The translations under genes were made by a program, and so were the position numbers. Below are positions 10,133 through 54,972 of a stretch of 64,000 nucleotides of DNA, piece by piece. The DNA comes from a virus (Duplodnaviria; Caudoviricetes). The stretch lies in the IMG/VR virus record IMGVR_UViG_3300021400_000045, positions 1-64,000 of that record; one strand, 5' to 3'. The first letter of the stretch is position 1. Each line of letters begins with the position of its first letter. The notes beneath the pieces are model-generated. The model searched no databases. It worked only from the letters and a program-made list of their open reading frames with translations, and was not told the origin of the DNA.

Positions 10133-10435
10133 CGTTACTACCGTCTGTTTCCAGATACTTTAACACTGCTCGTGGCAGTCGGGCTGGACTATATCACCAT
10201 CTGCTCATCACAGATGTCTGGCACTTCGAGCGCCGGAGTTTCACCGCCGCCCTACTCCCGAAGGGATAGTCTCTACACCTGATCACTCAGGCACGGGATT
10301 ACCATGCGTTCAGTTTAGGCTTCCCCGTTAGCCGATCTAAAAGTGTATATATTATCATTGTGTTTTAGACCGACACCCAGCGCTTACTGGTTCACCAGAT
10401 TATTCGACACGCGTCACCGCGTGAAGCGACCATTG
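10133..10435 (-). ncRNA. Group I intron, ORF-less, 303 nt
   Basis: Exon ends in U (GAU); P1 with U-G wobble (CGAU/GUCG); P7 GACUA/UAGUC; terminal G; precise removal restores the frame. Confidence 0.9.
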
Positions 10436-17750: not shown

Positions 17751-17979
17751 GATAAGGGGTCTCCGCGTTTGAATTTCTTCGGGCCTATACAAACAAAAAG
17801 GAGCCGTCACATCCCTGGAGATGCAGCGGCCCGCCCGTAAGGGCGAACGGTGAAATCGCGGTTTATTGTTTTTTAATATTTATTTGAATCTCAAGGCCTG
17901 TCTAAAATTACCCTAACAAGTACCCAACCTTCTGCCTGGACACGGTCTGGGATTGCGTAAACATTGCTTGAAATTGAAA

Positions 17980-19118: not shown

Positions 19119-19473
19119 TTTATTCTACATGTTGTAGAATGAGAACGGGACGGGAAAATTTTGCAGGGGTTTTGGGACTGTGGGGACTGGAGTTTTTTGG
19201 GACTGTAGGAAGGGGCAGCTACAGCCAGGCGGTCGGGCGGTCGCGGTGGCCGGGATGTAAACGGGGGCGGGGCGTCTGTCGCTGAAAATGTCTGTTTTCT
19301 GATGGACTCTGACATTTCCCATGAGGTGGTACGCGCCTCCGCTGGTGCGCTCTCGCTCTCGCGGTCACGGTGTGCGAATTATGACGGGGGTCAGGGCTTA
19401 CACCTACATAAAAAGAAGGGCGCTCGGTGGCGTCCCTCTCTCGTTGTCGTGCTTTTTGCGCTCTTCTCACTTG

Positions 19474-37776: not shown

Positions 37777-38934
37777 ATGAAGTTGGGGAGTTTGTTCTCC
37801 GGTTCCGGCAGCTTTGAGCTCGCCGGACTTTTTAATGGGATCGAACCCGTGTTTAATTCGGAAGTAGATGCCTTCCCTGTAGCAGTCACGGATAAACGGC
37901 TCCCCAACGTCAAGCAGTTGGGCGACGTAACGAAGATCAGCGGAGCGAAAGTCGAGCCGGTGGACATCATCACCTTCGGTTCGCCGTGTCAGGATCTGTC
38001 CATCGCCGGTAATCAGGCTGGCATCCATGAAGGAACCAGAAGCTCCCTGTTCTTTGAAGCCATCAGGATCATTAAGGAGATGCGGAATGCAACATCAAAT
38101 CAGTTTCCAAGATTTGCTGTCTGGGAAAACGTCAAGGGATCTCTCAGCTCCCACAGCGGAGCAGACTTCAAAGCCGTCCTCGAAGCGTTCTGCGAAGCCG
38201 CAGGAGCCGACGTTCATGTACCTCTCCCTGAAGTCAACAAAGGGAAATGGGCCACAGCCGGAACCGTCGTGGGAGATGGTTTCTCGATTGCCTGGCGTGT
38301 CTACAACGCCGTCGGTTGGGGCGTTCCCCAGCGCCGTGAGAGAGTCTACCTTGTCGCAGATTTTGGAAGCGAACGTGCCGGAGAAATACTCTTTGAGTCC
38401 GAGAGCGGCGACGGGTATTCAACGCAGAGCTACGAGGCGTGGCAAGCCTTTGCCTTCGGTACTGAAGGAAGCGCTGGACGAAGTGATAGCCAGTGCATGA
38501 TCTGGGATGCCCGTGGCAATGGCGACGGACTCACTTCCCCCACCATCACCGGCGACCACAACAACCGGATCACCGACTATACCGCCGTCATTGTAGAACC
38601 GAGACCTGCGACCCACTACTTCTCCATGCAGCGCTTCGATGAGTTCAAGGAGAGCGATGCGGCATCCACCCTCAAACAGCGTGACTACAAAGATGTAACA
38701 GACATCGTGGTCGAGGAACGGGAACCAATACAGGAACGCAAGTACATCGTCCGGCGGCTGACGCCCACGGAAAGCCTGATTCTTCAGGGCTTGCCGAAAT
38801 GGTGGTGCGATGATGTGAAAGGTCGGTCGGACACAAAGGTCTATCGTCTCAGTGGGAACGGCATCGCTCTCCCCTGCGCGATCGATGTCCTCTATAAAAT
38901 CACCAAAGCATACGACATGAAAGGAGCGGCGTAA
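37777..38934 (+). CDS. C5 cytosine DNA methyltransferase (alpha polypeptide)
   Basis: LFSGSG (motif I), GSPCQD (IV), WENV (VI), PQRRER (VIII), RRLTPTE, GNGI (X). Confidence 0.9.
   Translation: MKLGSLFSGSGSFELAGLFNGIEPVFNSEVDAFPVAVTDKRLPNVKQLGDVTKISGAKVEPVDIITFGSPCQDLSIAGNQAGIHEGTRSSLFFEAIRIIKEMRNATSNQFPRFAVWENVKGSLSSHSGADFKAVLEAFCEAAGADVHVPLPEVNKGKWATAGTVVGDGFSIAWRVYNAVGWGVPQRRERVYLVADFGSERAGEILFESESGDGYSTQSYEAWQAFAFGTEGSAGRSDSQCMIWDARGNGDGLTSPTITGDHNNRITDYTAVIVEPRPATHYFSMQRFDEFKESDAASTLKQRDYKDVTDIVVEEREPIQERKYIVRRLTPTESLILQGLPKWWCDDVKGRSDTKVYRLSGNGIALPCAIDVLYKITKAYDMKGAA
38087..38500 (+). CDS. Nested alternative-frame methyltransferase beta polypeptide (M.EcoHK31I-type)
   Basis: Own RBS AAGGAG; STLSQILEANVPEKYSLSPRAATGIQRRATRRGKPLP. 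Confidence 0.7.
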   Translation: MQHQISFQDLLSGKTSRDLSAPTAEQTSKPSSKRSAKPQEPTFMYLSLKSTKGNGPQPEPSWEMVSRLPGVSTTPSVGAFPSAVRESTLSQILEANVPEKYSLSPRAATGIQRRATRRGKPLPSVLKEALDEVIASA

Positions 38935-40010
38935 TGAGAAAACTTGCAAGCGTTCAGGTCATCTGGAATGTGGAACCCATCGAGGGTGCGGACAGGATCG
39001 AGCTTGTCCATGTCCTCGGCTGGCAGTGCGTGGCCAACAAGGGCCAGTTCAAGAAGGGCGATGTCGGAGTGTATTTCGAGATCGATTCCTTCCTCCCCAT
39101 CCGTGAGGAGTTTGAGTTCCTGCGGGCTTCCTCATACAAGAAGACGGACATCATGGGCGAGGGCTTCAGACTGCGGACTCAGAAATTCCGTGGCCAGCTC
39201 TCTCAGGGACTGGTGCTTCCGCTGTCTGTCTTCCCTGAGATCCCGGCGGACACGCCTGTCGGAACCAGCGTAGCGGAACAGCTCGGTGTCATAAAGTGGG
39301 AGATTGAGGAACGCGCCACCACTGGAGGCACTGTTGCCGGAGTACTCCCCGCCTGTGTGCCTCATACAGACGAGACGCGAGTGCAGAACGAGCCGGATCT
39401 CCTTCAGGAGTTTGCCGGACTGGAATACTACATCACAACCAAGATGGACGGCTCGTCTCATTCGATTGCCATTGACGAGGACGGAATGCACGTCACCGGA
39501 CACAACTTCGAGTACAAGGACGATGGTTCAAGTGCCTTCTACGAGTTCGTGAAGAAGACCGGTATTCTGGAACGGGTCAAAACACTTCACGATATTGTTC
39601 GCGACAGGCACTGGTTCTGTGATGACGGAGAGGAATTGGAATCTCTGGTCGTTCAGGGTGAGTTCTGTGCTCCCGGCATCCAGAGGAACCGCCTGAAGCT
39701 GACGAAGCCGGAATGGTACGTGTTCACCATTATCGTGAACGGCAACCGCCTTGGAATGAAGGATATGGTCATGCTGTGTGACGCCGCTTCCCTGACATAC
39801 GTGCCGATCGATGAAGTGGACACTGATCTTCCATCCAAGTATCCCACGGTGGAAGCCATACTGGAACGAGCGGACGGGCAGTATCCCAACGGCGGGCCGA
39901 ATGAGGGGCTGGTCATCAGGCCGACTGTACCGGTCATATCCAAGACAATCGGAACCTGGCTTTCCATGAAGGCCATCAACAACAAATACCTGCTGAAGAA
40001 TAAGGAGTGA
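38934..40010 (+). CDS. RNA ligase, DRB0094/Rnl5 family
   Basis: RKLASVQ...IEGADRIE N-terminus; KMDGS (motif I), QGEF, EGLV, SMKAIN. Confidence 0.85.
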   Translation: MRKLASVQVIWNVEPIEGADRIELVHVLGWQCVANKGQFKKGDVGVYFEIDSFLPIREEFEFLRASSYKKTDIMGEGFRLRTQKFRGQLSQGLVLPLSVFPEIPADTPVGTSVAEQLGVIKWEIEERATTGGTVAGVLPACVPHTDETRVQNEPDLLQEFAGLEYYITTKMDGSSHSIAIDEDGMHVTGHNFEYKDDGSSAFYEFVKKTGILERVKTLHDIVRDRHWFCDDGEELESLVVQGEFCAPGIQRNRLKLTKPEWYVFTIIVNGNRLGMKDMVMLCDAASLTYVPIDEVDTDLPSKYPTVEAILERADGQYPNGGPNEGLVIRPTVPVISKTIGTWLSMKAINNKYLLKNKE

Positions 40011-40263: not shown

Positions 40264-42884
40264 TGGATCGTGATGAATTGATTGAGGCCCTCAAACATTG
40301 TGCACTAGATAAGGAAGAACAGTGCGATGGCTGCCCCGGCGAGAACGGTATATGTTGCAGGTATATGAAGGATGGCTCGTGGGCCGAGGTTCCTCAGAGT
40401 CTGGTGAAACAGGTACTGAGTGAACTCGGAAACGCTACTGCGGACTATGAGCGCGGGCAGAGGGACGCGTGGGAGCTGGCCCAGAAGATCCTAAAACCTG
40501 TCATCGACGGCGGGTATTCGCATCAGCAACTGCTGGATATCTTTGGGGATCACGACGCAACAGCTGCTGATATCATAACAGAACTAGCGATCGATCGCGC
40601 CGTCGCAAGAGTCAAGGAATACGAAAAAAGAATTGCCCTCCATGTCGGCGATGAAGTGCTGAACTTGGCGGGTGTACGCCTGGTAGTGCTCAAGCGGCGG
40701 GAGGATGGATTGGTCTATACGTCTTCGGCGAACGGCGATGTGGACATGTACAAGCGTGATCATCTGACCAAGACGGGGAGGCACTTCGACGAATTGGAAC
40801 AGCTGATGAAGAAGATGCAGAAGGAGTGAGGCTGCGCACGATGGAGATGGTGAATAAGGTTTGCCCAAGGTGCGGCAATGCCAATTACGTAGTGAGCATC
40901 GGTGAATTCAGCAAAGCATTTCCTTACAAGTGTATAAACTGCAACTCTTATTTGACGGACGAAGATTTTGCCGTGAACAGCAGAGAGCTGAAGGAACATG
41001 TGATGGTCACACCCGAAAGGCGTTACATCAATCCCGACCCGCATTTTGATACATACAGGTGTATGGGGTGTGATTACATGCGTCTGCATTATGGTCAGCG
41101 TTATTGCGGTGGGTGCGGGAATGAGGTGAAGTGGGATGAGACCGATTGACGCGGACACGCTAAAAAAAGACCTGACACGGTTCTACTACGGCGATGTAAC
41201 AGCAAGAGAGCTTATTGACGAACAGCCGACCATTGGCTGGATCAGCGTCAAGGATCGCAAGCCGCCAGCGATTCCTGGTACCGGCGAGCACTTCAGGAAA
41301 GAGAACAAGCCCGTACTGTTGCTTGCTGGCAAGCAGGGCTCCGTCTATGTCGGCTGGTACATCGGCGAAGATTACAGAGGGATCGACTGCTACATCTCCC
41401 GTACCAGCCTGAACGCTTTCCAGTACATCACCAGGAAGATCACCCACTGGATGCAGATACCGGAATTGTGTGAGGAGGATCAGCAATGATAACAGTAACG
41501 TTTGACGCGACCGCCCTGTTCATAGGCTTCTTCATCGGAATGTTTGTCGGTGCACTGCTTTCCCTCTTTATCGAAACGCGAGAGGGCGGGCCGTGGAGCG
41601 ATGGATACACAACTGGATACCGTAGCGGAACGGAGCTGCGGAAGTATATTGAAGAGTCAGTAAGAAAAGAATTGTCGAAGGAGTGATGAGCATGACCGTG
41701 CGCGACTTGATGGAAGACCTGCTGGACGCGGAATGCCGCGACAGCATAGTGATTACGATCCCCTTGTTGGACGGGACGGAAGCAGTAACGGAAATTGCCG
41801 ACGTGCACGTTCGCAACTGGGGAGTCGAGATCGTGACGGGGATGATCGACGCTGCGCCGAACCCGTGCGCGAACTGTCAGGAGTTCTCCTGCGATGGGTG
41901 TGCGCATGCGAAGGAGTAGCCTGTGGACTTGAAAGATTTTGTGATTGATAAGGTGCTTGGCCTGAAATGCGAACCCGTTATAAAAGGAAATGGTACACAA
42001 ATGAGCTTTCAGGAATATGCTGACTGGATTCACGATGACATCACCTGGTGCAGTGACATCGGGTGCGCGTTCATCAACTGTGTGCGGAACCAGGTCAACC
42101 GCCGTAGCAAGGACGGCCCCTATTCGATGGCTGACTTCGCCGGAACGGACGAGTGTCCGCTGGAACACATGAAGAACCAGAGATGGGAGATGACCTATGA
42201 GACTGATCGATAAGGACGCGCTGATCGAGGCCATCGGCGAGGAACCGGAAGTCTGGATACCGGACGATTATACACAGGGCCTCCACGACCAGTGGATCTG
42301 TGATCTGGAAGCGATCAACTCCCTACCGGAGATCAACGCGTGGAACCGCGTCGCCCACTGGACATATGATCGGCCTCACCACTGGTTCTGCTCTTCCTGC
42401 AAGACCATGCAGGGCTTAACGGCGCGGATCATGAACTTCTGTCCCCAGTGCGGAGCGAAAATGGAAGGCGGTGCTACCGAATGAGTCCGCTGGCTGTCGT
42501 CGCGTTGTTGTTTCTGATACTGCTCGCCCTGCTCGTCGGCTTTATGGGCGGAGTGATCTACTCTGTCGACCATAATGTAAAGGAGATTTTGAAATGAGTA
42601 TTGTTGCTGTCGTGATTATCTGCTCCCTGCTGTTCCTGCTCGGCTTCACCACCACCGCCGCCATGTTCTGCATGCGTGAACGGAATACCGCCAATGACCG
42701 TTACAACCGTCTGTACGAGGCGTGGCACAATCAGGTCGAAGAGATCACCAATCTTCAGTCCGACATCGCCTGGGCGGAATCGCAGAGGGACTACTGGTGT
42801 GACAAGTATAACGACATCGTCGCTCCCGAACCTTCCAAGACCAGCATCGCCGTGCCCGCCACGAAGGAAGGTGATGTGGCTTGA
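40263..42884 (+). other. Run of small accessory genes (Zn ribbons, DUF551-like, membrane proteins)
   Basis: 40263-40829, 40826-41149, 41136-41489 (WISVKDR...ITHW), 41486-41686, 41683-41919, 41923-42213, 42197-42484 (MRLID...CPQCGA), 42594-42884. Confidence 0.75.
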
Positions 42885-45214: not shown

Positions 45215-45946
45215 ATGGAAAAGAAAGACGAAGTCGCCGAGCTGAATTTGTATCAGCGTCTGGCAAAGGTGCGCGATATCGCCGATGTCGTACAGAAGAA
45301 CAAGAGTGGGTATGGCTACAAGTACACATCGGAGGACGAGATCCTCGCAAAGGTCAAGGCCGGTATGTCCAAGTACCGTGTGTCTGTGTATCCGCGAGTG
45401 GACACGGAGTCCTTTGAAAACGTGCCGCGAGAGTATGAGAAGAGCAAGTACGACAAGTCCGCTGGGAAGATGGTCACCACCAAGGAAGTGGAATGGGTCG
45501 TGCGCGGGGTCGTCATGTACAAGATCCTGAATGACGATAACCCCGAAGAGTTCTTCGAGGTTGCGTGGCCCATGTGCGGAACGCAGTCGGACATGTCTCA
45601 GGCTTTCGGCTCCGCGCTGACCTACGCCAACCGCTACTTCTATCTGAAGTTCTTCAACATCGCCACGTCCGAGGATGATCCCGATGAGTGGAAGCGCAAG
45701 AAGATGGAAGCCGCAGAAGCGGAAGACAAGGAAGCCGCCGACGCTATGATCCAGCGGATCGACGACCTCTGCAAAGAGATGGTCACGGACGCGAACAAGG
45801 CCGAGGTGACCAGCCTGATCAAGAAGTACGCCACCGACGGCGGCAAGCCGACGGCCAATTACAAGCGGATCAGGAAGCTCGACGAGGCCACCAAACTGTA
45901 CACCGCACTGACGAACTACTTTAATGATGTCAAGGAGGAAAAGTAA
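45215..45946 (+). CDS. ERF-family single-strand annealing protein
   Basis: KNKSGYGYKY, SQAFGSALTYANRY, DDPD. Confidence 0.85.
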   Translation: MEKKDEVAELNLYQRLAKVRDIADVVQKNKSGYGYKYTSEDEILAKVKAGMSKYRVSVYPRVDTESFENVPREYEKSKYDKSAGKMVTTKEVEWVVRGVVMYKILNDDNPEEFFEVAWPMCGTQSDMSQAFGSALTYANRYFYLKFFNIATSEDDPDEWKRKKMEAAEAEDKEAADAMIQRIDDLCKEMVTDANKAEVTSLIKKYATDGGKPTANYKRIRKLDEATKLYTALTNYFNDVKEEK

Positions 45947-45947
45947 T

Positions 45948-46394
45948 ATGGGATTTCGTGATGGCGCTTATTGCAAACTGTGGAAGCTGGATACTTCCCG
46001 CAAGTTCCCTCAGGGGCAGATCTCTATCTCACGCAAGGACAAGCAGACGGGCGAGTATGTGGATGACTTCAGCGGCTATGTAGACTTCATGGGCGAAGCC
46101 GCGAACGCGATCCAGAAGATCCCTGCCCAGGGCCGGTTCAAGATCAAGGGCTGTGATGTCTCCCGTATCTGGAGCAAGGAAAAGCAGCGCGAGTTCATCA
46201 ACTTCCGTATCTTCGATCTGGAACCGGTCGAGCAGAACAGTGCCGCTCCCGCCCAGCGCTCAGCCAAGAGCAAGACCAACGATGACATGAGCGTCGCCGA
46301 ACTGGAAGCCCGTCTCGCGGAGGCGAAGATGAAGGCGGCTGGCAAGAAAGTGGCGACTGATAATGAGGATGAGGATGAACTCCCTTTTGATTGA
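45948..46394 (+). CDS. ssb: Single-stranded DNA-binding protein
   Basis: OB-fold-sized; RKDKQTGEY; acidic tail DEDELPFD. Confidence 0.8.
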   Translation: MGFRDGAYCKLWKLDTSRKFPQGQISISRKDKQTGEYVDDFSGYVDFMGEAANAIQKIPAQGRFKIKGCDVSRIWSKEKQREFINFRIFDLEPVEQNSAAPAQRSAKSKTNDDMSVAELEARLAEAKMKAAGKKVATDNEDEDELPFD

Positions 46395-46434
46395 CGGGTT
46401 AGCCTTCCCAACACAAAAAGGTGGGTGTTAAATC

Positions 46435-47184
46435 ATGAGTTCAGTCTTGTTTTCAGACTGGGTCTGGAGCTACAGCCGTCTCACTCTGTATGAACAGTGC
46501 CCCTATGCGTTCGCGCTCAAGTACATCTACGGCGAGCCTAACGGCCAGACCAACTTCTACGCCGGGTTCGGTACGTACATGCACCGCATACACGAGCTGT
46601 TCTATACCGGAGTCCTGAAGCAGGAAGACCTCGTCCCCTACTACATCGAGCACTTCGATGAAGTCGGGTATCACAAGGGCCGCAGCAAGTACTTCGTGGA
46701 AGGCCTCAATTATCTGGAGGGCGGGATACAGGTTGTCCCGTCCTCTGTTCTTGGGGTGGAGCAGGTGATCAACTTCAAGGTTGACAAATACGACTTCACC
46801 GGCGTCATCGACCTGCTGTACAAAAACGCAGATGGAACGCTCACGATCTGTGACCACAAGTCCCACCCGCTCCAGCCGCGCTCGAACCGGAAGAAGCCAA
46901 CGGCCAGCGACCGCGAACTGGACTCCTATCTAAAACAGCTTTATCTCTATGCCCACGGCGTTCATCAGCTGGGGTTAGGAGATGTAGGGGTGCTCCAGTT
47001 CAACTGCTTCAGGATTGCTAAAACATTGGATAATATTTATTTGAAAGAGAAGGAAGAGGAAGCCGTGGCGTGGGCGGTCGACACCATCAGGTCAGCCGAA
47101 AACGCGGAGCGGTTTCCTCCGTTCCAGGACTGGTTCTATTGCCATAATCTGTGCGACCACCGTGAGGTGTGTGAATACAAATAA
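46435..47184 (+). CDS. PD-(D/E)XK exonuclease (AddB/Cas4-like, Fe-S Cys)
   Basis: WSYSRL..YEQCP, GVIDL, DHKS, QLYLY, C..LC.....C. Confidence 0.8.
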   Translation: MSSVLFSDWVWSYSRLTLYEQCPYAFALKYIYGEPNGQTNFYAGFGTYMHRIHELFYTGVLKQEDLVPYYIEHFDEVGYHKGRSKYFVEGLNYLEGGIQVVPSSVLGVEQVINFKVDKYDFTGVIDLLYKNADGTLTICDHKSHPLQPRSNRKKPTASDRELDSYLKQLYLYAHGVHQLGLGDVGVLQFNCFRIAKTLDNIYLKEKEEEAVAWAVDTIRSAENAERFPPFQDWFYCHNLCDHREVCEYK

Positions 47185-47189
47185 GGGGG

Positions 47190-49163
47190 ATGGGTATGGA
47201 GCAGATATCGAAAGAGTCTATACAGGAAGCAAAGGAAAAGCTCGGAGACAGACAGGCGGACATGATCGCCGATATCCTCTCCCTCAAGCAGTATAACCCG
47301 TCCAGGCACATCGCCTGCTGTCCTCTGCACGACGACAAGACACCGTCCTTCAGTTACAACGCCCGGAGCGGAAGCTATTTCTGCTTCGGGTGTCATCGTT
47401 CTGTGGACATCCTTGACGCGTGGATGATGAAGGGCGACACGTTCCTGCAAGCGGTGGAAAAACTGTTTCAGGAAGCGGAGATGCCGCACAACTTCTCCTA
47501 TCGTGGCGTCAGGGATAATGAGGAGACGGAGTTCTGCTACCCTGAACCGAAGTACGCCCCGTCCAAGGAGCATGTGTACGCCTACTGGAAGAAGCGCTGT
47601 ATCTCCCCTGAGACCATCGACGCGATGGACGTGCAGGAAGATCCCGACGGCAACACTTTGTTTCAGTTCTACGACTCGGCAGATGTGCTCCGCGCCGTCA
47701 AGTTCCGCCCCTCCCGCCCTGTGCCCCACGGCGAGCGCAAGTGCTGGTGGATGAAGGACGAGAAGAACCGTGACCTCAAACCCTATGTCGGGCTCCTGTT
47801 CAATCAGCACAAGCTTAACATCTCGGAGCCAATCATCATCTGCACCGGCGAGGGTGACGCGATGGCGGCGTATGAGTGCGGCTTTCACAACGCCTCCAGC
47901 ATTCCCGGCGGCGATCAGAACCTGAACTGGGTCTCCTATCAGTGGGGCTTTCTGGACAAGTGCCACCAGTTCGTCCTCGTCTATGACAACGATGACTCCG
48001 GCAGGAAGTACATCAAGGAGATTACGCGCCGCCTCGGCGAGGAACGCTGCAAGGTGGTAGATCTCCCGGAGACCTGGGAAATGCCAGACGGCTCCACAAA
48101 GCGCATCAAAGACCTGAACGAGCTCTTGTTCTACGGCGGCAAGGACGCCGTCATTAACGCCATCAACAATGCGCAGGAGCGGCAGATCGAGTCTGTCATC
48201 GACTGCTCCGACGTGCAGGATATCGACATGGACGGCATCGACGGCATGAAGACCGGCTTCAAGGAGCTGGACTCCTGCATCAACCGCTCCTACTGTGGCA
48301 CAGTGTCAATCGTCACCGGCGTCCCCGGCGCTGGCAAAACGTCCTTCCTCTCCACCATCATCAATGAGGGCGTGGATCAGGGCTTCCCCACCTGGGTCTA
48401 CTCCGGCGAGCTTTCCAATAACGCGCTCAGAAACTGGACGATCAAGTGCCGCGCCGGTCAGTACTGGCTGGACAAGGTGGAGCGTGACGGATTCACTTCC
48501 TACCAGATCAGGCCCGAAGCCATCAAAAAGATGGACGAGTTCTACCGTGACAAGCTCCTCTTCTTCAAGGACACCTACGACGCCACGCCTGATGCGCTCT
48601 TCCACTCGCTGGAGTCCTGCGTCAGAAAGTACGGTGTGAAGATGGCTGTGATCGACAACCTGTCTTCCGTCAACCTCGGCTCCTTCGGTGACAAGTACTG
48701 GGACATGCAAAACCAGTTCATCCGCGATTGCATTGCCACGGCGAAGCGGCTGGATGTGGTCATGTGGATCGTCCTGCACCCCAAGAAGATGGTGGAGTTC
48801 AACCACGCGCCCGAACTGTATGATCTGTCCGGCTCTGTTTCGGCGGCGAACCTCGCGCACCGCGTGTTCTCCCTGTACAGGGTCAAGGAGGAGGATCGCC
48901 AGCCCGACAAGAACGGCAAACGCCGCCCGTACACGGACTGCTCCGTCCAGCTGCACATCATCAAAGACCGCTTCACCAGCGCTCTGGGCCGCGTCTATCC
49001 CCTGTACTATGATCCCAGCAGTCGCCGCTTCTACGATAATCTGGATACCCTCAGGAAAAACTATGCGTGGGATACGCAGGAGCACAAGGAGCCTCTGCCT
49101 TATCTGACTGAGGAACAGCTGCGCATGGCCAGCGGGGAAGCCGACGATAGCGATCCGTTTTAA
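47190..49163 (+). CDS. Primase-helicase (CHC2 Zn finger, TOPRIM, SF4 helicase)
   Basis: CPLHDDKTPS..CFGC; GEGDA, YDNDDSG; GVPGAGKT, IDNL, LHPKK. Confidence 0.9.
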   Translation: MGMEQISKESIQEAKEKLGDRQADMIADILSLKQYNPSRHIACCPLHDDKTPSFSYNARSGSYFCFGCHRSVDILDAWMMKGDTFLQAVEKLFQEAEMPHNFSYRGVRDNEETEFCYPEPKYAPSKEHVYAYWKKRCISPETIDAMDVQEDPDGNTLFQFYDSADVLRAVKFRPSRPVPHGERKCWWMKDEKNRDLKPYVGLLFNQHKLNISEPIIICTGEGDAMAAYECGFHNASSIPGGDQNLNWVSYQWGFLDKCHQFVLVYDNDDSGRKYIKEITRRLGEERCKVVDLPETWEMPDGSTKRIKDLNELLFYGGKDAVINAINNAQERQIESVIDCSDVQDIDMDGIDGMKTGFKELDSCINRSYCGTVSIVTGVPGAGKTSFLSTIINEGVDQGFPTWVYSGELSNNALRNWTIKCRAGQYWLDKVERDGFTSYQIRPEAIKKMDEFYRDKLLFFKDTYDATPDALFHSLESCVRKYGVKMAVIDNLSSVNLGSFGDKYWDMQNQFIRDCIATAKRLDVVMWIVLHPKKMVEFNHAPELYDLSGSVSAANLAHRVFSLYRVKEEDRQPDKNGKRRPYTDCSVQLHIIKDRFTSALGRVYPLYYDPSSRRFYDNLDTLRKNYAWDTQEHKEPLPYLTEEQLRMASGEADDSDPF

Positions 49164-49217
49164 CTTTCGTTTATCTTATGACTTGAATCAAGTTACGATA
49201 CATTTTGAGGTTAAGAT

Positions 49218-49445
49218 ATGAAAAAAGAAGAACGCGATATCATGGCCGATATGTTCTACTTCCTGCGCGACTTCGGCGATCCTCCCCCTCCCGGCACAAA
49301 GGAGAGTGCCCCCTTCTGGGAGAAGGCATCTGACTCCATCGCCTCCGTCGTGGGCAAGAAGTGGCAAAACCATCCACTTGCCATGCAGGTCGGTATCACC
49401 ATGTACAACTACATCGTGGACAAGAGCAAGGGTGTGATCGGGTGA
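49218..49445 (+). CDS. Hypothetical protein
   Basis: RBS GAGG. Confidence 0.65.
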   Translation: MKKEERDIMADMFYFLRDFGDPPPPGTKESAPFWEKASDSIASVVGKKWQNHPLAMQVGITMYNYIVDKSKGVIG

Positions 49446-49491
49446 TGGATAAGTGGACAGAACTGCGGGAGACCATATAGGAGAACAAAGT

Positions 49492-49836
49492 ATGATAGAT
49501 TATAGTCTTGCCAAACAGACAGACGAACTCAAAAGGCTGATCACAGAGCATCCAGATTATCAAATCGTTGTGCTTGCTGGTGAGGAGGCAAACGGCGGCG
49601 ATTATACGTGGATGTGCTGTAGCGATGTCAGGTTTGCTACCGGTGAAATCTTAGACACAGACTATTACGATTATAACGATACCATTATTACCGATAGAGA
49701 GCGTCTTGAAGAAATAATAGAAGATCGTCTTTATGATGAGTTAAAAGGCGATGAGCTTGACAAAGCCGTGAAAGACAAGATGGCAGAGCTTGAACCGTAT
49801 TGGAAGAATGTTATTTTTATATACGCAACAAACTAA
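49492..49836 (+). CDS. Cassette gene 1, acidic hypothetical protein
   Basis: ATG after TAGGAG; stop lies inside the next site. Confidence 0.7.
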   Translation: MIDYSLAKQTDELKRLITEHPDYQIVVLAGEEANGGDYTWMCCSDVRFATGEILDTDYYDYNDTIITDRERLEEIIEDRLYDELKGDELDKAVKDKMAELEPYWKNVIFIYATN

Positions 49837-49852
49837 AATAGGAGGATAACGT

Positions 49853-49987
49853 ATGAACGTGTTCTTTGCTATGTTTGGTGTTGCGATTGGAGTGTTGCTA
49901 TATCGCCTGATTATCGCACCAATTGAACGCAAAAAGGCCAGAGAAGAATGTATCCGTAAAGGCCTTGTGCCGCGTGGCAAGACTTAA
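49853..49987 (+). CDS. Cassette gene 2, 44-aa membrane peptide
   Basis: MNVFFAMFGVAIGVLLYRLII...; hand translated. Confidence 0.6.
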   Translation: MNVFFAMFGVAIGVLLYRLIIAPIERKKAREECIRKGLVPRGKT

Positions 49988-50002
49988 ATAGGAGTTTAGA
50001 AG

Positions 50003-50110
50003 ATGATTGAATGGCTTATGGCACATATCATCGAGGTGTATTACAAGATAGTTGAGATCGCATATGGAAAGTATACTTTTAAGAAATGCTATCGTATTCA
50101 TTTGCGTTAA
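50003..50110 (+). CDS. Cassette gene 3, 35-aa peptide
   Basis: MIEWLMAHIIEVYYKIVE...; fills the interval between sites exactly. Confidence 0.55.
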   Translation: MIEWLMAHIIEVYYKIVEIAYGKYTFKKCYRIHLR

Positions 50111-50126
50111 ATAGGAGGTTTAGTGC

Positions 50127-50438
50127 ATGAGTAGTATGCCATTTACTATTGGGCTTTCGGTTGTTGACCGTCTGGAGCCAGTGGATGGTAGTGTAATACT
50201 TCGGACGAAAACCCGTGATGAAATGAGCGATGAAGTAAACCGTATTCAGGAAATGCTATCAAAGAACGACTTAATTAAGGTGTGCCCTATTGGTTTAAGG
50301 CCGGATAAGCCGATACCAACAGCGATGTATTTTACTGAAATTTGTATTAGCAAAAACAAGGCCGAAGAATGGATGTTTTCATTAGGACTATTTAGCGGTG
50401 CCTGGCCTTGTGTTGTCACGGGGAGAGCGGTAACTTAA
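50127..50438 (+). CDS. Cassette gene 4, hypothetical protein
   Basis: ORF track; stop inside the next site. Confidence 0.65.
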   Translation: MSSMPFTIGLSVVDRLEPVDGSVILRTKTRDEMSDEVNRIQEMLSKNDLIKVCPIGLRPDKPIPTAMYFTEICISKNKAEEWMFSLGLFSGAWPCVVTGRAVT

Positions 50439-50454
50439 ATAGGAGAATAAGACA

Positions 50455-50628
50455 ATGACCGTAAATGATGCCATGCGTGAGTTCCGAAAAGCCAAAGATG
50501 CAATCGACACACTCGACCGATACAGTCACGGCGAAATGCCAAACATAGCGGAACAGCACGTTGACGAGATACGCGAAATGCTGGAACATTATATGGATAT
50601 GATTGCAAAACTGAAGATAGTCGAATGA
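50455..50628 (+). CDS. Cassette gene 5, 57-aa helical protein
   Basis: MTVNDAMREFRKAKDAIDTL...; hand translated. Confidence 0.6.
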   Translation: MTVNDAMREFRKAKDAIDTLDRYSHGEMPNIAEQHVDEIREMLEHYMDMIAKLKIVE

Positions 50629-50648
50629 CTTAAATAGGAGTTTAATAC

Positions 50649-50849
50649 ATGACGAATGAAGAAGCGATAAAAGCTATAAGGGCAAATTGGCCACCAGAAA
50701 ATTACTCTATACTTCGTGAAGCATTGACGCTTTCCATTCGTGCTCTTAGTGAAGAAGATCAACATTCAAAAAGTTGCTCTTACTATGCAGAGAACGGCAA
50801 GAAACCTTGTTGCACTCATGATTGTGATGGGTGTGTGTGGTATGTTTAA
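50649..50849 (+). CDS. Cassette gene 6, Cys-rich small protein
   Basis: MTNEEAIKAIRANWP...CCTHDCDGC. Confidence 0.65.
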   Translation: MTNEEAIKAIRANWPPENYSILREALTLSIRALSEEDQHSKSCSYYAENGKKPCCTHDCDGCVWYV

Positions 50850-50876
50850 GGTTGACTTAAATAGGAGTTTAAGACA

Positions 50877-51197
50877 ATGGGAACCGTACAAATAAACAGA
50901 CAGGCAAAGTATAAGTCAGAGGAATATACAGATCTGGAGATGCCGTCTGATGATATGGATGACTATCTGGAAAACTATCACAGCAAACTTGTTAAGGCAA
51001 GAAAAGAAACCAAGTGTCATTACTGCGGAACAACTATCAAAGCAGGCGATCAAGCGCTGAGTGAAAAGTGCTTTATCGATGGCAAGCCTTATTACATCCA
51101 TGACTGTCTTGACTGCGTGGAAGACGTCATAAAAGGATGGGATGACGAGGCACAGACCAGATGGGAGCAGAGAGCAAAGGAATCGGGATATATTTAA
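50877..51197 (+). CDS. Cassette gene 7, Zn-finger protein
   Basis: KARKETKCHYCG...CLDC. Confidence 0.7.
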   Translation: MGTVQINRQAKYKSEEYTDLEMPSDDMDDYLENYHSKLVKARKETKCHYCGTTIKAGDQALSEKCFIDGKPYYIHDCLDCVEDVIKGWDDEAQTRWEQRAKESGYI

Positions 51198-51226
51198 TGA
51201 TCGTAATCAAAATAGGAGGTTAAATC

Positions 51227-51349
51227 ATGGAGAAAGTAGCAATCGAGTTCACGAAAGAAGAGTTCGACAAAATCATTGAGTTTATGGATGGTGGCGAATA
51301 TGAAACCGTCCAGCAGGCTATTATGGCGGCAGTCGAAAACGCAGGATAA
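51227..51349 (+). CDS. Cassette gene 8, 40-aa acidic peptide
   Basis: MEKVAIEFTKEEFDKII...; hand translated. Confidence 0.6.
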   Translation: MEKVAIEFTKEEFDKIIEFMDGGEYETVQQAIMAAVENAG

Positions 51350-51368
51350 CTAAAATAACACTTTTATA

Positions 51369-51444
51369 CGCGGTGCCTGGTTCTCAGCAAGTTCGTTCGC
51401 ACTACTGGGCTTAATTTTACGTTCGATTCGTAAAGCCGCAGTCA
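51369..51444 (+). ncRNA. tRNA-like element (acceptor stem plus T arm, no canonical D or anticodon arms)
   Basis: 76 nt; TTACG-TTCGATT-CGTAA T arm; GCGGT/GCCGC acceptor-like helix. Confidence 0.35.
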
Positions 51445-51461
51445 ATTCTATGAGGTGAAAC

Positions 51462-52634
51462 ATGCCAAACTACACCATGTATCACTGTCACAGCGATTAC
51501 AGTCTGCTGGACAGCTGCACCAAGTTCGATGATTACATCGCGCTTGCCAAGCGGGACGGCATGACGGCTATCGGGTCTACGGAGCACGGTCTCCCCAGGG
51601 GCAACATTCATAAGATGATCGCCTGTCAGGAGGCTGGCCTCAAGTTTCTCTACGGCGTCGAGGTCTATCTGACCAGATCGCTGTCGGGGGACAAGGTCAG
51701 GGATAACTACCACACCGTGCTGATCGCGAAGAACCATGATGGCATGAAGGAGATCAACCTGGCCGTCAAGCTGGCGTCCAGAGACGACCACTTCTATTAC
51801 CAGCCGCGCATGACCTTCGATGAGCTGACCCGGCTGTCAAAAAACGTCATCGTGATCTCGGCCTGTATCGCGTCGCCCATGAGCAAGCTACCCGTCAGCG
51901 ATCCTGACTATCAGAAACTGCTCAACCGTTACGATTATCTGGAGATCCAGCACCACGATAACCCCGATCAGGCGGCGTACAACCAGCACCTGTACCAGCT
52001 GTCGCTGGAGACGGGCAAACCACTCATCGCTGGGACAGACACCCACTCTTCCACACCGTACAAGGCAGAGTGCCGCGACCTGCTGATGCTTGCCAAGGGC
52101 AAGTCCTTCCCCGATGAGGAGACATTCGACCTGACCTACAAGACCTACGATGAGCTGGTGGCAGCCTACGAGAAGCAGGCCGCGCTCCCCCGTGATGTCT
52201 ACCTTCAGGCGCTGGAGAACACCAATGTCATGGCGGCAAGCGTAGAAGAGTTTACAGTGGACAGGAGCAATAAGTATCCCATCTCCTATGGCTCCGCCGA
52301 AGAGGATGTGCGGAGGTACAGAGAACTGACCTGGCAGATGTTTGAGGATAAGCTGAAGAACGGTGTGATACCGAGGAGCCAGGAAGATGCGTTCAGGAAG
52401 GCGATAGAAGAGGAGCTCGCTACGTTTGAAAAGCTTGGCATGTGCGGCTTCATGCTGTCAGAGAGCGAGCTCATTCAGTGGTGCCATGCCAACGGCATTC
52501 CGACCGGCCCTGCCCGTGGTTCTGTCGGCGGTTCGCGGGTAGCCTATGTCACGGACATTATCGATATGAACCCAGAAGACTACGGCACGATTTTCAGCAG
52601 GTTCTGTAACGAAAATCGTGTAGAAATCGGTGAT
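51462..52634 (+). CDS. dnaE: DNA polymerase III alpha (DnaE), exon 1
   Basis: PHP domain HCHSDYSLLD, TEHG, DTH; GPARGSVGGS; FSRF. Confidence 0.92.
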
Positions 52635-52959
52635 TAACCTTGGTCACCCTTTGCAGTAATGCATCGAAAATAAGCTGGTGAACCAACACATGTTGGGTGT
52701 GCGGCAATTGCCGTGCTAACGGTGAAAGCTAAACCGAGAGGCATGCTAATACCGTGGTAAGCCTTTGGGAAAGGAGGTAACCATAAGGTTAGCTGTGGTT
52801 ATCGGCTTATTAAGCTTCCGAAGGAAACTGTAACGACTATCCAGACAGGAGTAGCGTAACGGTGAAATTCCGTTATGTGAAGCGCCAGCCTCCGCAACTA
52901 TGCGGATGAAGATATAGTCTACTCCCCTAATAAATATCGGGAAACCGAGGGTATAAAGG
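52635..52959 (+). ncRNA. Group I intron, ORF-less, 325 nt
   Basis: P1 GGUGAU/GUCACC with U-G; P7 GACUA/UAGUC; terminal G; splicing restores catalytic GD/IDTD. Confidence 0.9.
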
Positions 52960-54972
52960 ATTGACACAGACCTGATCGACACCGATAGGACGAAGGTATT
53001 CCAGCATATCATTGAAAAGTTCGGCGAGCGCAAGACGGCCCGTGTTTCGGCCTATGGCACGGTCGCTGACAAGGGCGTGATCGACGACATCTGCCGTGGT
53101 CTCAAGACACGCTGGGTGAAGGAAAACCGGAAAGACCTGAACCCCAAGACATTCAAGGATGAGATGATTCCCGAGTGCCCGTTCACACTAAAATCGGCGG
53201 ATAAAATCAAGGCCGAGTATATGAGCAACCAGACAGCCGCCAGGCAGAAATATCCCGACGTCTTCTACTACTTCGATGGCACGGTCAACACCATCGTCAG
53301 CCAGTCCATCCACGCCGCAGGCATCGTCATCTCTCCGGTCACCCTGGACGACAACTACGGCACGTTCTGGAATAACGGTGAGCACTGCCTCCTGCTCGAT
53401 ATGGATGAGGCTCACGACGTGGGCATGTGCAAGTATGACATGCTGATCCTGACGAACGTGAAGATCATCGCCGATACCTACAAAGCGCTGGGGAAACCGT
53501 TCCCTAAAACGCACGAAATCGACTTCAATGATCAGGCTGTATGGGAAGACATGCGTCGAAGCCCTTACGGCATCTTCCAAATGGAGAGCTCGCTTGGGTA
53601 CAACTCCCTGTGCAAGATGAAACCGACCAGCATCAAAGAGATGGCGTTGTTGACTGCGTCAATCCGTCCGTCTGGAGCGTCATACAGGGACGATGTGTTT
53701 GCCCGAAAGGTACACGCCAACCCCACCAAGGAGATGGACGAACTCTTTAAGGACAACTTCGGCTTCTGCGTCTATCAGGAGGACATCCTGCGTGCTCTGA
53801 TCGAGCTTTGCGGATTCAGCGGCAGTCAGGCAGACACAGTGCGGCGAGATATCGCAAAGAAGAATCCTGAGAAGGTCGCCAAGGATATCGTACTAATCAA
53901 ACAGGGATATATCGAGCGTTCCAATAAACCGATGGAAGAGGCCGAACGCGATGTGGCAGACCTGCTTCAGGTCATTCAGGACGCCAGTGGGTACTCCTTT
54001 AATAGCTCGCACGCAGTCGCATATTCCATTGTGGGCTTCATGTGCGCCTATTGCCGCTACTACCACCCCCTTGAGTTCTGTACCGCCTACCTGAACGGTG
54101 CTCACTCACAGGACGATATCGCCCACGGCACACTGCTGGCACAGCTTTATGGCATCAAGGTGGCGTCGCCAACCTTCGGCCACTCCAGCAGTGAGTACAC
54201 CTTTGACAGGGCTACCAATACCATCTATCAGGGGCTGGAGTCAGTCAAGGATCTGTCGTCAGGTATCGGCGAGAAGCTGGCAGAGGTGGAGAGCACCTTT
54301 GCTCCTACCGGCAAAAACCGTTTTATGGACGTCGTCTGGGCGCTGAAACTTGCCGGTATCGGCAATAAGCAGATCGAGATACTGATCAGCATCGGGTACT
54401 TCAAGGATTTCGGCAACCCCAACAAATTACAGAAAATATTTGAGATCGCGTCCATGCTCAAGTTCGGCGAGCTGACCTGGCTCTCCAACGAGAAGAAGAT
54501 CACAATCTTCGGGAGCCGCGACGATGAGGTTTCCCAGTATGCCGAGCGCAGGACGGAGAAGAACTGGCGCGTTAAGGATGGCAAAGGCCTGATCGGTCTG
54601 GTCGAGGATATTATCCAGAAGCAGGACATCCAGCCGCCCGCCCTCAGTGACAGGCTCGCAACGTGGAAGGAATACCTGGGCTACGTCCCAGCGCTGGGCA
54701 GCAACTACCGCTCACTGCTCTATGTCTCCGAGCCTCCGCGCCCGCTATATGCCAAGAAGTCGGGTAAGCTCTGGGCGTACAGCGTTATGGCAATTTCGCT
54801 CAGAACTGCCGAAGTGCATGAGTGGACGATCCCCAGAGAGATGTACGTACACAACGTTCGCGAGGGCGATCTCCTGCGCGTCATCGGTGGTAAGAACGGG
54901 TATATGAAGAAAGAGTACATGGGCGTGATGCGATATCATCTGCTCGACTATCAAATCGTAGATAACTTATAA
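52960..54972 (+). CDS. dnaE: DnaE, exon 2
   Basis: IDTD, SIHAAGIVI, KYDML, GIFQME, YSFNSSHA. Confidence 0.92.
   Translation: MDTDLIDTDRTKVFQHIIEKFGERKTARVSAYGTVADKGVIDDICRGLKTRWVKENRKDLNPKTFKDEMIPECPFTLKSADKIKAEYMSNQTAARQKYPDVFYYFDGTVNTIVSQSIHAAGIVISPVTLDDNYGTFWNNGEHCLLLDMDEAHDVGMCKYDMLILTNVKIIADTYKALGKPFPKTHEIDFNDQAVWEDMRRSPYGIFQMESSLGYNSLCKMKPTSIKEMALLTASIRPSGASYRDDVFARKVHANPTKEMDELFKDNFGFCVYQEDILRALIELCGFSGSQADTVRRDIAKKNPEKVAKDIVLIKQGYIERSNKPMEEAERDVADLLQVIQDASGYSFNSSHAVAYSIVGFMCAYCRYYHPLEFCTAYLNGAHSQDDIAHGTLLAQLYGIKVASPTFGHSSSEYTFDRATNTIYQGLESVKDLSSGIGEKLAEVESTFAPTGKNRFMDVVWALKLAGIGNKQIEILISIGYFKDFGNPNKLQKIFEIASMLKFGELTWLSNEKKITIFGSRDDEVSQYAERRTEKNWRVKDGKGLIGLVEDIIQKQDIQPPALSDRLATWKEYLGYVPALGSNYRSLLYVSEPPRPLYAKKSGKLWAYSVMAISLRTAEVHEWTIPREMYVHNVREGDLLRVIGGKNGYMKKEYMGVMRYHLLDYQIVDNL

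Follow-up and report, generated by a model that had tools for sequence, protein, structure and literature searches.

A shuffled array of small gene cassettes, bounded by a short repeated junction, between the helicase and dnaE genes of a rumen phage

Rumen phage G000 carries a shuffled cassette array between its primase-helicase gene and dnaE. The cassettes are promoterless, share one orientation and are gained or lost at a short repeated site. Single cassettes have been exchanged between different phage backbones, gut populations are polymorphic for them, and the breakpoints fall at the junction. With a probability of about 0.55, the block represents a hyperplastic accessory array of exchangeable cassettes in which the junction acts both as translation punctuation and as portable homology for general recombination. 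The exchange most likely proceeds by ordinary short-homology recombination rather than by an integron-like enzyme. A sequence-only reading of this locus had proposed a cassette-shuffling system driven by a tyrosine recombinase; the exchange of cassettes at junctions is borne out, whereas the dedicated tyrosine recombinase is not.

The G000 genome measures 116,012 bp with direct terminal repeats, and the window refers here to the whole 64-kb stretch of it that was analyzed. The motif AAATAGGAG is found seven times in the window, always on the + strand (49836-51218), against 0.29 matches expected from shuffled sequences, and none of 100 shuffles reaches seven. The same seven are the only matches in the entire genome. 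An 18-mer junction consensus matches five sites with at most three mismatches, with zero expected. The sites bound small unrelated ORFs, as had been noticed from the sequence alone, and the block is indeed AT-rich, with a GC content of about 40% (0.38-0.45) compared to 0.55-0.60 in its flanks. It contains eight ORFs (c1 to c8) without mutual similarity, separated by intergenic gaps of 15-29 nt (Table 1). The stop codon precedes the AGGAG core by 2-16 nt and the next start codon follows AGGAG at the near-fixed distance of 8-9 nt that had been pointed out, so that stop, Shine-Dalgarno sequence and start lie close together at each boundary, the layout of translational coupling. No sigma-70-like promoter is found between 47 and 53 kb (5.6 expected from shuffles), in agreement with the claim that the genes are promoterless; a terminator-like site on the + strand is equally lacking in this region, and a search for att-like direct repeats flanking the block returned none.

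Table 1. Features of the cassette array of phage G000 (49164-51461) and of the upstream recombination module; positions refer to the window.
Feature	Position	Strand	Remarks
Recombination module	45215..47184	+	Erf-like annealing protein 45215-45946, exonuclease 46435-47184
Left edge of inserted block	49164..49491	+	absent from G001/G006
orf75	49218-49445	+	GC 0.54, no family; within left edge of block
First junction	AGGAG 49479-49483	+	left arm non-consensus; similarity to c1 cassette of G001b starts exactly at 49479
Cassette c1, 114 aa	49492..49836	+	weak match to phrog_23660
Junction 1	49831..49852, AGGAG 49840-49844	+	
Cassette c2, 44 aa	49853..49987	+	N-terminus hydrophobic
Junction 2	49981..50002, AGGAG 49990-49994	+	joint 49990>51358 in run X3
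Cassette c3, 35 aa	50003..50110	+	missing from goat-gut contig, run X4
Junction 3	50104..50126, AGGAG 50113-50117	+	
Cassette c4, 103 aa	50127..50438	+	
Junction 4	50432..50454, AGGAG 50441-50445	+	joint 50432>50855
Cassette c5, 57 aa	50455..50628	+	skipped along with c6, run X4
Junction 5	50627..50648, AGGAG 50636-50640	+	exact 18-mer consensus
Cassette c6, 66 aa	50649..50849	+	match to phrog_30902
Junction 6	50854..50876, AGGAG 50863-50867	+	exact 18-mer consensus; only site with clear hairpin
Cassette c7, 106 aa	50877..51197	+	Cys-rich (CxxC...CxxC)
Junction 7	51205..51226, AGGAG 51214-51218	+	joint 51208>51352 in run X4
Cassette c8, 40 aa	51227..51349	+	
Terminal junction, second class	51348..51369, core AACAC 51357-51361	+	left arm retained, AGGAG replaced
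Non-coding tail	51370..51461	+	tRNA-like element B, then dnaE ribosome site

The junction consensus spans about 16 nt (TTAAAT-AGGAG-nTTAA). A logo of 51 sites shows that, around the core, conservation is restricted to positions -6 to -1 and +6 to +9, and specific bases outside the stop codon and the Shine-Dalgarno sequence are 75-96% conserved across unrelated phages. The right arm is less uniform (65-86% conserved) and falls into two classes, as about 40% of the sites have a right arm of the GATAA or AATAA type. Of the inverted arms described earlier, a 5-bp A/T palindrome is present in the consensus, with conserved arms of 5-6 bp, but not at every site. The first site (49479) has no consensus left arm. 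The upstream stop codon, said to lie usually in the left arm, does so at four of the seven internal junctions and is located 7-16 nt before the core at the other three. Since the left arm is kept at these three junctions, where it is not the stop codon, it must be under a constraint beyond stop and Shine-Dalgarno function. Other genes in the array-bearing genomes have ordinary ribosome sites without junction arms. When folded as single strands, only three of the eight G000 sites form a hairpin of any kind (best -4.6 kcal/mol), while the other five show essentially no fold (0 to -0.2 kcal/mol).

A second class of junction, AAAT-AACAC-TTT, closes arrays or precedes non-coding tRNA-like cassettes. 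The terminal site of G000 belongs to this class and is no isolated case, as the AACAC variant also closes or interrupts arrays in G001 (in two places), G003, G009 and G011. These sites keep the arm bases, which agrees with the earlier claim that the motif is more than a Shine-Dalgarno sequence. The motif AAATAACAC occurs eight times in seven genomes, and six of these occurrences lie within arrays and share their strand. Ahead of non-coding cassettes, the core has lost its Shine-Dalgarno sequence and reads AACAC or, once, TATAC. In G000 the tRNA-like element B (about 72 nt, 51370-51441) follows the terminal site. A second array (L273) contains an 81% similar copy whose closing and T-like stems show paired changes. 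Structured tRNA-like elements with supported helices are located among the cassettes; the fold of element B is not significant when taken alone. In runs X2-X4, the non-coding tail also occurs in other surroundings, with loose ends at positions 51370 and 51408. No family was matched by an Rfam search of the arrays, ARAGORN predicted no tRNA in either the window or the arrays, even when introns were allowed or settings relaxed, and the G000 terminal module was not found in a scan of metagenome contigs.

Neither Pfam nor PHROGs assigns a function to c1-c8 or orf75. We considered c4 as a 2H phosphoesterase (Acb1), following an atlas lead, and rejected this reading because c4 has no histidine for the HxT motifs; scores were below 0.9 with few common features. 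Apart from the source assembly, exact protein look-ups of c4 and c7 matched a single short contig. A collection of cultured phages contains no c7 homologue and one weak c1 homologue. At the DNA level, the matches in this collection are confined to an intron in dnaE.

The closest relatives, G001 and G006, lack the block altogether, and in them 14 nt separate the helicase stop codon from the start of dnaE. G002 and G007 have a different insert of 330 bp at this position, and relatives carry arrays at other loci. At least seven phage backbones, of 35-64% GC and with almost no other genes in common, contain small AT-rich genes bounded by this junction. In G000 no site lies outside the array, and the sites of six other genomes likewise fall in discrete arrays. 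Gene families in common with G000 number 187 in G001 but only 1-5 in G003, G004, G009 and G010, and yet single cassettes are common to G000 and such backbones at 79-97% nucleotide identity. These close homologues carry the same flanks, one of the checks suggested by the sequence-only reading. Cassettes c1, c7 and c8 recur elsewhere at 89-97% nucleotide identity, with similarity beginning and ending at the junction. Similarity ends within 10 nt of a junction core in 21 out of 32 cases, compared to 10% for random positions.

The counterpart of cassette c1 in G001/G006 belongs to another array and has different neighbours; it is 91% identical (nucleotides), and AGGAG cores bound the similarity on both sides. 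Cassette c7 has a copy at 96.7% nucleotide identity in the unrelated phage G009 (42 kb, 64% GC), as a solo cassette preceded by an AGGAG junction and followed by an AACAC one; at the same locus, the G009 relative L050 has a different cassette, which is non-coding. More distant c7 homologues (51-53% amino acid identity) have no junctions. The homologue of c8 in the 46-kb phage G003 is 95% identical at the amino acid and 89% at the nucleotide level, another in the 69-kb phage G004 is 70% identical (amino acids), and the upstream neighbours differ in both phages. The 18-mer has 18 scattered single matches in bacterial genomes, with about 17 expected from the size of the collection, and gives no host or prophage signal; the junction is thus not a general host-optimal initiation region. 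A 14-mer scan of viral contigs yielded mostly single chance matches among the matches listed.

Natural variants of the array were read from assembled contigs of public sequencing runs of other ruminant gut samples, and were found in independent data sets from cattle, sheep and goat. Arrays at the same locus lack c3, c5 and c6, or c8, and are joined in register at the junction. In a goat-gut contig of run X4, c2 is joined to c4 through the junction (joint 49972>50112). Also in run X4, c5 and c6 are skipped together through a joint with 13 shared letters, and a further joint concerns c8. In run X3, the junction after c2 is joined directly to the terminal AACAC site. Some joints, at c1, at c3-c8 and at c8, may reflect replacement by other sequence rather than simple loss. 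None of about 20 joints has scars, duplications or gene remnants. Hybrid joints between AGGAG and AACAC sites are as frequent as AGGAG-AGGAG joints among the observed variants, with an AGGAG-type left and an AACAC-type right side sharing only about 7 nt (TTAAATA) plus TTT. Gain, loss and reordering of cassettes across relatives, put forward earlier as a check, thus have their breakpoints at the junction.

An Erf-like annealing protein (phrog_155, 7.8e-30; PF04404, 7.8e-19) and an exonuclease (phrog_69, 6.2e-18) are encoded 2-4 kb upstream of the array, and this module of the phage itself is a candidate catalyst. Erf and RecT were found in G000 and G001 only and are absent from G003, G004 and G009, and the arrays as a whole can therefore not be put down to one phage annealing protein. 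Two tyrosine recombinases (PF00589) are encoded in G000 at 18.1 and 65.8 kb, located 31 and 15 kb from the array; the latter (65751-66962) lies outside the window. The former (17980-18864) had been nominated as a candidate enzyme of the system, which is not supported, as its homologue occurs only in the sister phage G001, and G009 has no tyrosine recombinase (PF00589) but a serine integrase only, though it carries a cassette. No recombinase family common to the array-bearing phages was found, no recombinase gene adjoins any array, and none of the genomes examined has a Y1 transposase; a serine recombinase is present in G009 only. A zinc-ribbon family (40826-41149 in G000) present in six out of seven array-bearing genomes was considered as a shared factor and rejected, since it has no recombinase features and is unrelated to c7; it looks like another accessory protein.

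The precise and scar-free joints at the same position in many independent events could be the work of a dedicated system that recognizes TTAAAT...TTTAA, cuts next to the 5-nt core and inserts the excised circles elsewhere, using a phage or host tyrosine recombinase or an unrecognized nuclease or transposase. The left arm conserved apart from the stop codon, the retention of both arms in the AACAC class, hybrid joints with so little common sequence, the dyad in the consensus and the two tyrosine recombinases of G000 would fit such a system. We nevertheless consider it quite improbable given the enzyme distribution described above, the short arms with a right arm in two classes, and the five out of eight G000 sites without dyad or hairpin. 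In addition, AGGAG/AACAC hybrids conflict with the spacer identity that tyrosine recombinases need, and if TTAAATA is taken as the spacer, the left binding arm would come to lie in cassette sequence that is not conserved. One of the exchange boundaries falls within a gene body, and the link between a right arm and its cassette is not strict. The more general proposal that the junction is the recognition site of a trans-acting cassette-mobilizing activity cutting directly 3' of TTAAAT(A), whether the core is AGGAG before a gene or AACAC before a non-coding element or an array end, is about as improbable; if true, it would amount to integron-like but integrase-independent gene capture in rumen phages that also moves tRNA-like RNAs.

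The junction might also be a pure expression signal for termination and reinitiation on a polycistronic early transcript, with illegitimate or microhomology-mediated exchange; joints would then look precise as selection removes products that lose the stop or the Shine-Dalgarno sequence. The stops, the strong Shine-Dalgarno sequence at a fixed distance from ATG, spacers so short that viable joints must fall there, and the destroyed cores before non-coding cassettes are consistent with this, as is an RNA-library contig spanning junctions 1 and 6, a weak indication with possible DNA carry-over. This explanation is unlikely in view of the conserved bases outside both signals, which AACAC sites keep, the clean joints, the lack of arms at the ribosome sites of other genes in the same genomes and the chance-level frequency of the 18-mer in bacteria. 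We give very little credence to a junction read at the RNA level, as an endoribonuclease target or translational-repressor site with tRNA-like cassettes as RNase P/Z punctuation and recombination as a by-product. T4 RegB does cleave GGAG-centered motifs in early mRNAs, tRNA-like elements with supported helices occur among the cassettes, and at some sites the AU-rich arms can pair so that a small loop holds the Shine-Dalgarno sequence. Against this, no candidate RNA-binding or RNase gene and no Rfam family was found, most sites have no hairpin, and an RNA reading alone does not explain DNA-level exchange.

In the preferred explanation, exchangeable cassettes with a portable junction, the promoterless cassettes would comprise small protein genes and a non-coding tRNA-like element at the 3' end. 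With TAA/TAG stops in two frames, and with a strong Shine-Dalgarno sequence placed 8-9 nt ahead of ATG, the junction would allow any inserted gene to be expressed from read-through transcripts. It would also form a short in-register patch of identity common to many otherwise unrelated rumen phages, at which homology-guided general recombination could remove, add or exchange cassettes and leave no scars. Erf-like annealing with the exonuclease, host RecA and replication slippage between direct repeats are candidate routes. We infer general recombination rather than a dedicated enzyme from several observations. An exchange tract between G001b and G006 ends inside a homologous gene body, a 51-aa cassette, with about 85% identity before position 4120 of G001b (L019) and 100% after it; the joint at c5 and c6 shares 13 letters; and in a comparison of G000 with G009, the c7 gene body is 3.3% divergent and its right arm differs at three out of nine positions. 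On the other hand, the 7 nt of homology at hybrid joints is short for homologous recombination, the left join of c1 in G000 involves little more than AGGAG itself, the left arm is retained at the three G000 junctions where it does not supply the stop codon, and the limited distribution of Erf and RecT argues against one phage annealing route. The junction sequence probably stays uniform because a matching common junction makes a cassette transferable.

How phages cleanly acquire single small accessory genes (ORFans, host-takeover or anti-defence genes) is a long-standing question. Here, one short junction would unite termination, ribosome loading and the crossover point, and the same junction, in several cases with the same cassettes, circulates among phages with unrelated backbones in one habitat. 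This yields a concrete model, open to testing, of an accessory-gene pool that phages share, and the junction can serve as a sequence tag to locate such pools and collect candidate host-interaction genes from them. Should a dedicated enzyme drive the exchange, this would represent a new gene-capture system.

The array resembles known systems to different degrees. Stop, Shine-Dalgarno sequence and next start lie within about 20-30 nt as in translational coupling, but ordinary coupling junctions neither show base-for-base conservation across unrelated genes and genomes nor coincide with mosaic breakpoints. Xer/dif and Cre/lox sites consist of two inverted arms of 11-13 bp around a spacer of 6-8 bp, which must be identical between partners. 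The G000 consensus similarly has a short inverted A/T repeat around an asymmetric 6-nt center, but its arms measure 5-6 bp and vary from site to site, different cores give hybrid junctions and there is no common recombinase; the assignment to an integron-like or Xer/Cre mechanism is thus not upheld. With integrons the array shares promoterless cassettes in one direction that are read through, and presence/absence polymorphism at a repeated site. The attC sites of integrons are imperfect palindromes of 57-141 nt that fold as single strands, for which the spacers of 15-29 nt are too short, and it was rightly stated before that the sites are no attC hairpins. In addition, no IntI is located next to any array, there is no attI or Pc, and the special site is at the 3' rather than the 5' end.

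The best reading is that the G000 junction is a translational analogue of the promoter-early stem-loops (PeSLs) of T4-type phages, which are mobile regulatory cassettes in hyperplastic regions (Arbiol et al., 2010, PMC2839356; Comeau et al., 2014, PMC4122927). Recombination takes place between PeSL repeats, where one crossover has been located between the Shine-Dalgarno and -10 boxes, and homologous recombination between repeats leading to deletions and mini-circles is the proposed mechanism (PMC2839356; PMC4122927). In both systems, small non-essential ORFan genes flanked by short conserved repeats are located between core-gene blocks (here helicase and dnaE), and relatives differ by insertion, deletion or replacement of single genes with crossovers inside the repeats. 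Unlike the promoter and terminator stem-loop of a PeSL, the G000 repeat is a stop plus Shine-Dalgarno sequence of about 16 nt and the cassettes appear to be co-transcribed. Also unlike PeSLs, the junction and its cassettes are common to unrelated backbones of 35-64% GC, and a second class of core, devoid of the Shine-Dalgarno sequence, marks array ends and non-coding cassettes.

The array block with its junctions is a real and well-supported feature of the rumen phage genome G000. Between the primase-helicase gene (47190-49163) and dnaE (from 51462), eight ORFs of 35 to 114 aa without similarity to one another lie in a block with a GC content of 38-45%, versus 55-60% in the flanking genes. The motif AAATAGGAG has seven matches in the 64-kb window versus 0.29 expected from shuffles, all on the plus strand between 49836 and 51218, and it occurs nowhere else in the complete genome of 116,012 bp, which has direct terminal repeats. 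The ORFs are separated by spacers of 15-29 nt and the ATG follows 8-9 nt past AGGAG. Neither a sigma-70-like promoter nor a terminator-like site on the plus strand was found in the region of 47-53 kb. The sequence-only reading, which described an AT-rich block of unrelated small, promoterless genes bounded by TAGGAG-type sites at a near-fixed distance to the ATG, is thus confirmed on these points. In a sequence logo built from 51 distinct sites of ten arrays, TTAAAT (left arm) is conserved at 75-96% before the AGGAG core and nTTAA (right arm) at 65-86% after it. The right arms fall into two classes, which corrects the description of the arms as imperfect inverted repeats. The upstream stop had been placed ‘usually’ in the left arm, whose TAA has this role at only four of the seven internal junctions.

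Four viral contigs (G001, G002, G006, and G007) encode a helicase that is 86-88% identical. In G001 (complete, 107 kb) and G006, dnaE begins 14 nt past the helicase stop, and therefore the entire 2.3-kb block is absent there, while in G002 and G007 this place is taken by another insert, 330 bp long and with a single small gene. Close relatives show three states at the helicase-dnaE junction (14 nt, 330-bp one-gene insert, 2.3-kb array), which makes it an insertion hot spot. Arrays with the same junction are present at other loci, two in G001 and one each in G006 and G002. Among the matches listed, six further phages have small AT-rich genes bounded by the junction (see table), each with the motif restricted to a discrete array. 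In an all-against-all protein comparison, G000 has 187 gene families in common with G001, 19 with G011 and only one to five with each of G003, G004, G009, and G010. The cassette GC content is 31-47% irrespective of that of the backbone.

Two further observations concern these genomes. A zinc-ribbon protein family (~70-107 aa; about half of the members end in CxxCGxxVKW) is the only family present in six of the seven array-bearing genomes, often in multiple copies and a few kb from the arrays. In addition, the G000 dnaE gene (DNA polymerase III alpha) is split by 440 nt of lower GC content that match the Rfam group I intron model (27 bits, E-value 2e-4, below the gathering score); over 55-140 nt, the core of this segment shares 77-97% identity with phage sequences of Staphylococcus, Enterococcus, Listeria, and Bacillus.

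Individual cassettes recur between phages. The first G000 cassette, c1, has 91% nucleotide identity to a cassette of the second array in G001 and G006; the identity begins at the upstream AGGAG and ends at the downstream AGGAG, with different neighbors on both sides. Cassette c8 recurs in G003 at 89% nucleotide identity, after a different cassette, and also in G004. Cassette c7 is a solo cassette in G009 (96.7%), flanked by an AGGAG-core junction on one side and an AACAC-core junction on the other, and a relative of G009 (L050) carries a different non-coding element between the same arms at this place. More cassettes are common to G001, G002, G003, G005, G010, G011, and metagenome contigs. Taking all pairs together, 21 of 32 similarity ends fall at most 10 nt from a junction core, versus 10% for random positions, as anticipated for cassette gain, loss, and reordering with breakpoints at the sites. 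The expectation that homologues elsewhere have the same flanks held for close copies of c1 and c7 but not for c7 homologues at 51-53% amino-acid identity, which lack junctions. Therefore, the junction is a mark of a recent, shared pool of cassettes rather than of gene families.

Public runs with parts of the window come from the gut metagenomes of three ruminants (cattle, sheep, and goats), and their contigs were aligned on positions 48800-51800. A goat run from another study contains the helicase gene, orf75 (directly before the array), c1, a diverged c2, and then c4, with c3 missing (joint 49972>50112). Next comes c7, with c5 and c6 missing (50432>50855, 13 shared letters), followed by the terminal site and dnaE, with c8 missing (51208>51352). 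In another sample from the source study, the junction behind c2 is joined with the terminal site (49990>51358). Loose contig ends reveal a different AACAC-type tail, which follows c3 in one run and c4 in a different run. At three of the variant joints, additional letters between both sides are possible. The contigs are Logan assemblies built with 31-mers, a word size with which a repeat of 13-18 nt cannot produce false joins.

The terminal site of the G000 array represents a second junction class. As had been noticed, it lacks the ribosome-binding site: it retains the left arm plus the TTT behind the core, and AACAC replaces AGGAG. AAATAACAC occurs eight times across seven whole genomes, six times inside arrays or at array 3' ends on the array strand. 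The AACAC site is followed either by a resident gene that has its own ribosome site or by a non-coding element starting with GCGGTG. Element A, a tRNA-like family among these non-coding elements, sits within cassette arrays and has 13 distinct copies in nine rumen-phage contig records. Its ends are almost invariant, with similarity to the acceptor and D arm of a tRNA-Leu at the 5' end and to a T arm and acceptor at the 3' end, and the anticodon arm is replaced by an insert that varies from 10 to 150 nt. The 6+6-bp acceptor/T-type helix stack is 96.8% paired with compensatory double changes in 5 of 12 pairs, a score reached by none of 500 shuffles; ARAGORN and Rfam do not recognize the element. 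It may serve as a mimic or decoy of tRNA, or as a processing signal. Element B, a second type represented by the ~72-nt tail between the terminal junction and dnaE, has a stem that closes it and a hairpin resembling a T arm, with the loop TTCGATT. Its fold is not significant for the single sequence taken alone; an 81% similar copy with paired changes is found in contig L273 and another copy in L204, both directly after an element A copy. The arrays thus contain RNA cassettes as well as protein cassettes, and cores that are Shine-Dalgarno sequences stand mostly in front of protein genes. One element A copy in the second G001 array is an exception, sitting behind an AGGAG core.

Downstream of the solo c7 in G009, a ~90-nt GC-rich non-coding segment lies between two TAACACCGT copies, the second preceded by a left-arm-like TTTAAGT, and AACAC-type junctions may enclose a further non-coding cassette here. 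G011 encodes an ARAGORN-predicted tRNA with anticodon CTA (labeled tRNA-Pyl) beside a tRNA-Leu, which may be an amber-suppressor tRNA. G000, whose relatives carry tRNA-like elements, encodes an RNA ligase (phrog_968, 1.4e-66), possibly linked to tRNA repair or counter-defense.

Coordinates of the arrays, elements, and side features
Feature	Record	Position	Remark
Helicase-dnaE hot spot	window	49164-51461	compared with L014 and L017
Helicase-dnaE hot spot	L014	11972-11984	
Helicase-dnaE hot spot	L017	11966-12296	
Junction bounding small AT-rich genes	G003		46 kb, 58% GC
Junction bounding small AT-rich genes	G004		69 kb
Junction bounding small AT-rich genes	G005		40 kb
Junction bounding small AT-rich genes	G009		42 kb, 64% GC
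Junction bounding small AT-rich genes	G010		70-kb fragment, 35% GC
Junction bounding small AT-rich genes	G011		116 kb, 45% GC
Element A	L019 (G001)	4544-4747	
Element A	L019 (G001)	2609-2777	
Element A	L273	908-1015	
Element A	L050	2870-2982	
Element A	L242 (G011)	2017-3011	
Element A	L229 (G004)	1686-2159	
Element A	L250 (G010)	611-817	directly upstream of tRNA-Cys gene
Element A	L204	2948-3121	minus strand
Element B	window	51370-51441	
GC-rich non-coding segment	L026 (G009)	3338-3440	
CTA-anticodon tRNA	L242 (G011)	19313-19389	G011 116 kb
dnaE, first part	window	51462-52637	
dnaE, second part	window	53077-54972	
dnaE interruption, intron match	window	52625-52941	
RNA ligase gene	window	38934-40010	
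Zinc-ribbon family	window	40826-41149	
Zinc-ribbon family	G001	78966-80094	
Zinc-ribbon family	G010	17462-18535	
Zinc-ribbon family	G011	51219-52213	
Zinc-ribbon family	G004	5837-6061	
Zinc-ribbon family	G003	9963-10494	

How the cassettes move can be weighed from these data. We slightly favor, with a probability of about 0.55, general short-homology recombination at a dual-use translational junction: the stop/Shine-Dalgarno junction would also serve as short homology, at which general recombination would exchange cassettes. This is supported by an exchanged tract between the second G001 array and G006 (99% identical otherwise) that ends inside a 51-aa cassette, with ~85% identity before L019 position 4120 and 100% after; by the right arm of c7, which in G009 departs from that of G000 at three of nine positions, with the gene itself only 3.3% different; by the 13-nt identical repeats flanking the c5+c6 deletion; and by the presence, a short distance upstream of the G000 array, of genes for an exonuclease and an Erf-like annealing protein. 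Three observations fit general recombination poorly, namely the AGGAG x AACAC joints, which are frequent though only ~7 nt are common, the left joint of c1 in G000, which rests on little beyond AGGAG, and the conservation of the left arm even where it is not a stop codon. Weighing the evidence for and against, we regard as rather improbable a purely translational signal, with illegitimate cassette exchange whose products are filtered by selection, and give hardly any weight to a function mainly at the RNA level.

A dedicated site-specific enzyme that moves the cassettes is unlikely too, a little more so than the purely translational signal. The protein at 17980-18864 (Pfam Phage_integrase), formerly the candidate enzyme, has a homologue only in G001, and no recombinase gene adjoins any array, which also speaks against the integron-like identity first proposed. 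G009 has a serine integrase only and no tyrosine recombinase, a Y1 transposase is present in none of the genomes, and the array-bearing phages have no common gene family with recombinase features. Tyrosine recombinases require spacer identity between partner sites, a rule contradicted by the AGGAG/AACAC hybrid sites, and the conserved arms are too short and inconsistent for the suggested Xer- or Cre-type core geometry.

The G000 array is thus not an integron and its junction is not an Xer- or lox-type site; nor are the sites attC hairpins, as was rightly stated, with a hairpin of any kind forming in only three of eight G000 sites when single-stranded. Among described systems, the PeSL of T4-type phages comes closest. 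PeSLs are conserved repeats, made of a promoter and a terminator, on either side of ORFans in hyperplastic regions, and recombination at them gives rise to indels, replacements, and mini-circles (PMC2839356, PMC4122927). By analogy, the G000-type array would work likewise. The array fails the defining composition test of a PeSL because it contains neither promoter nor terminator. Its repeat is instead a stop/Shine-Dalgarno junction that is common to unrelated backbones, and G000-type arrays add a second junction class without Shine-Dalgarno sequence as well as RNA cassettes.
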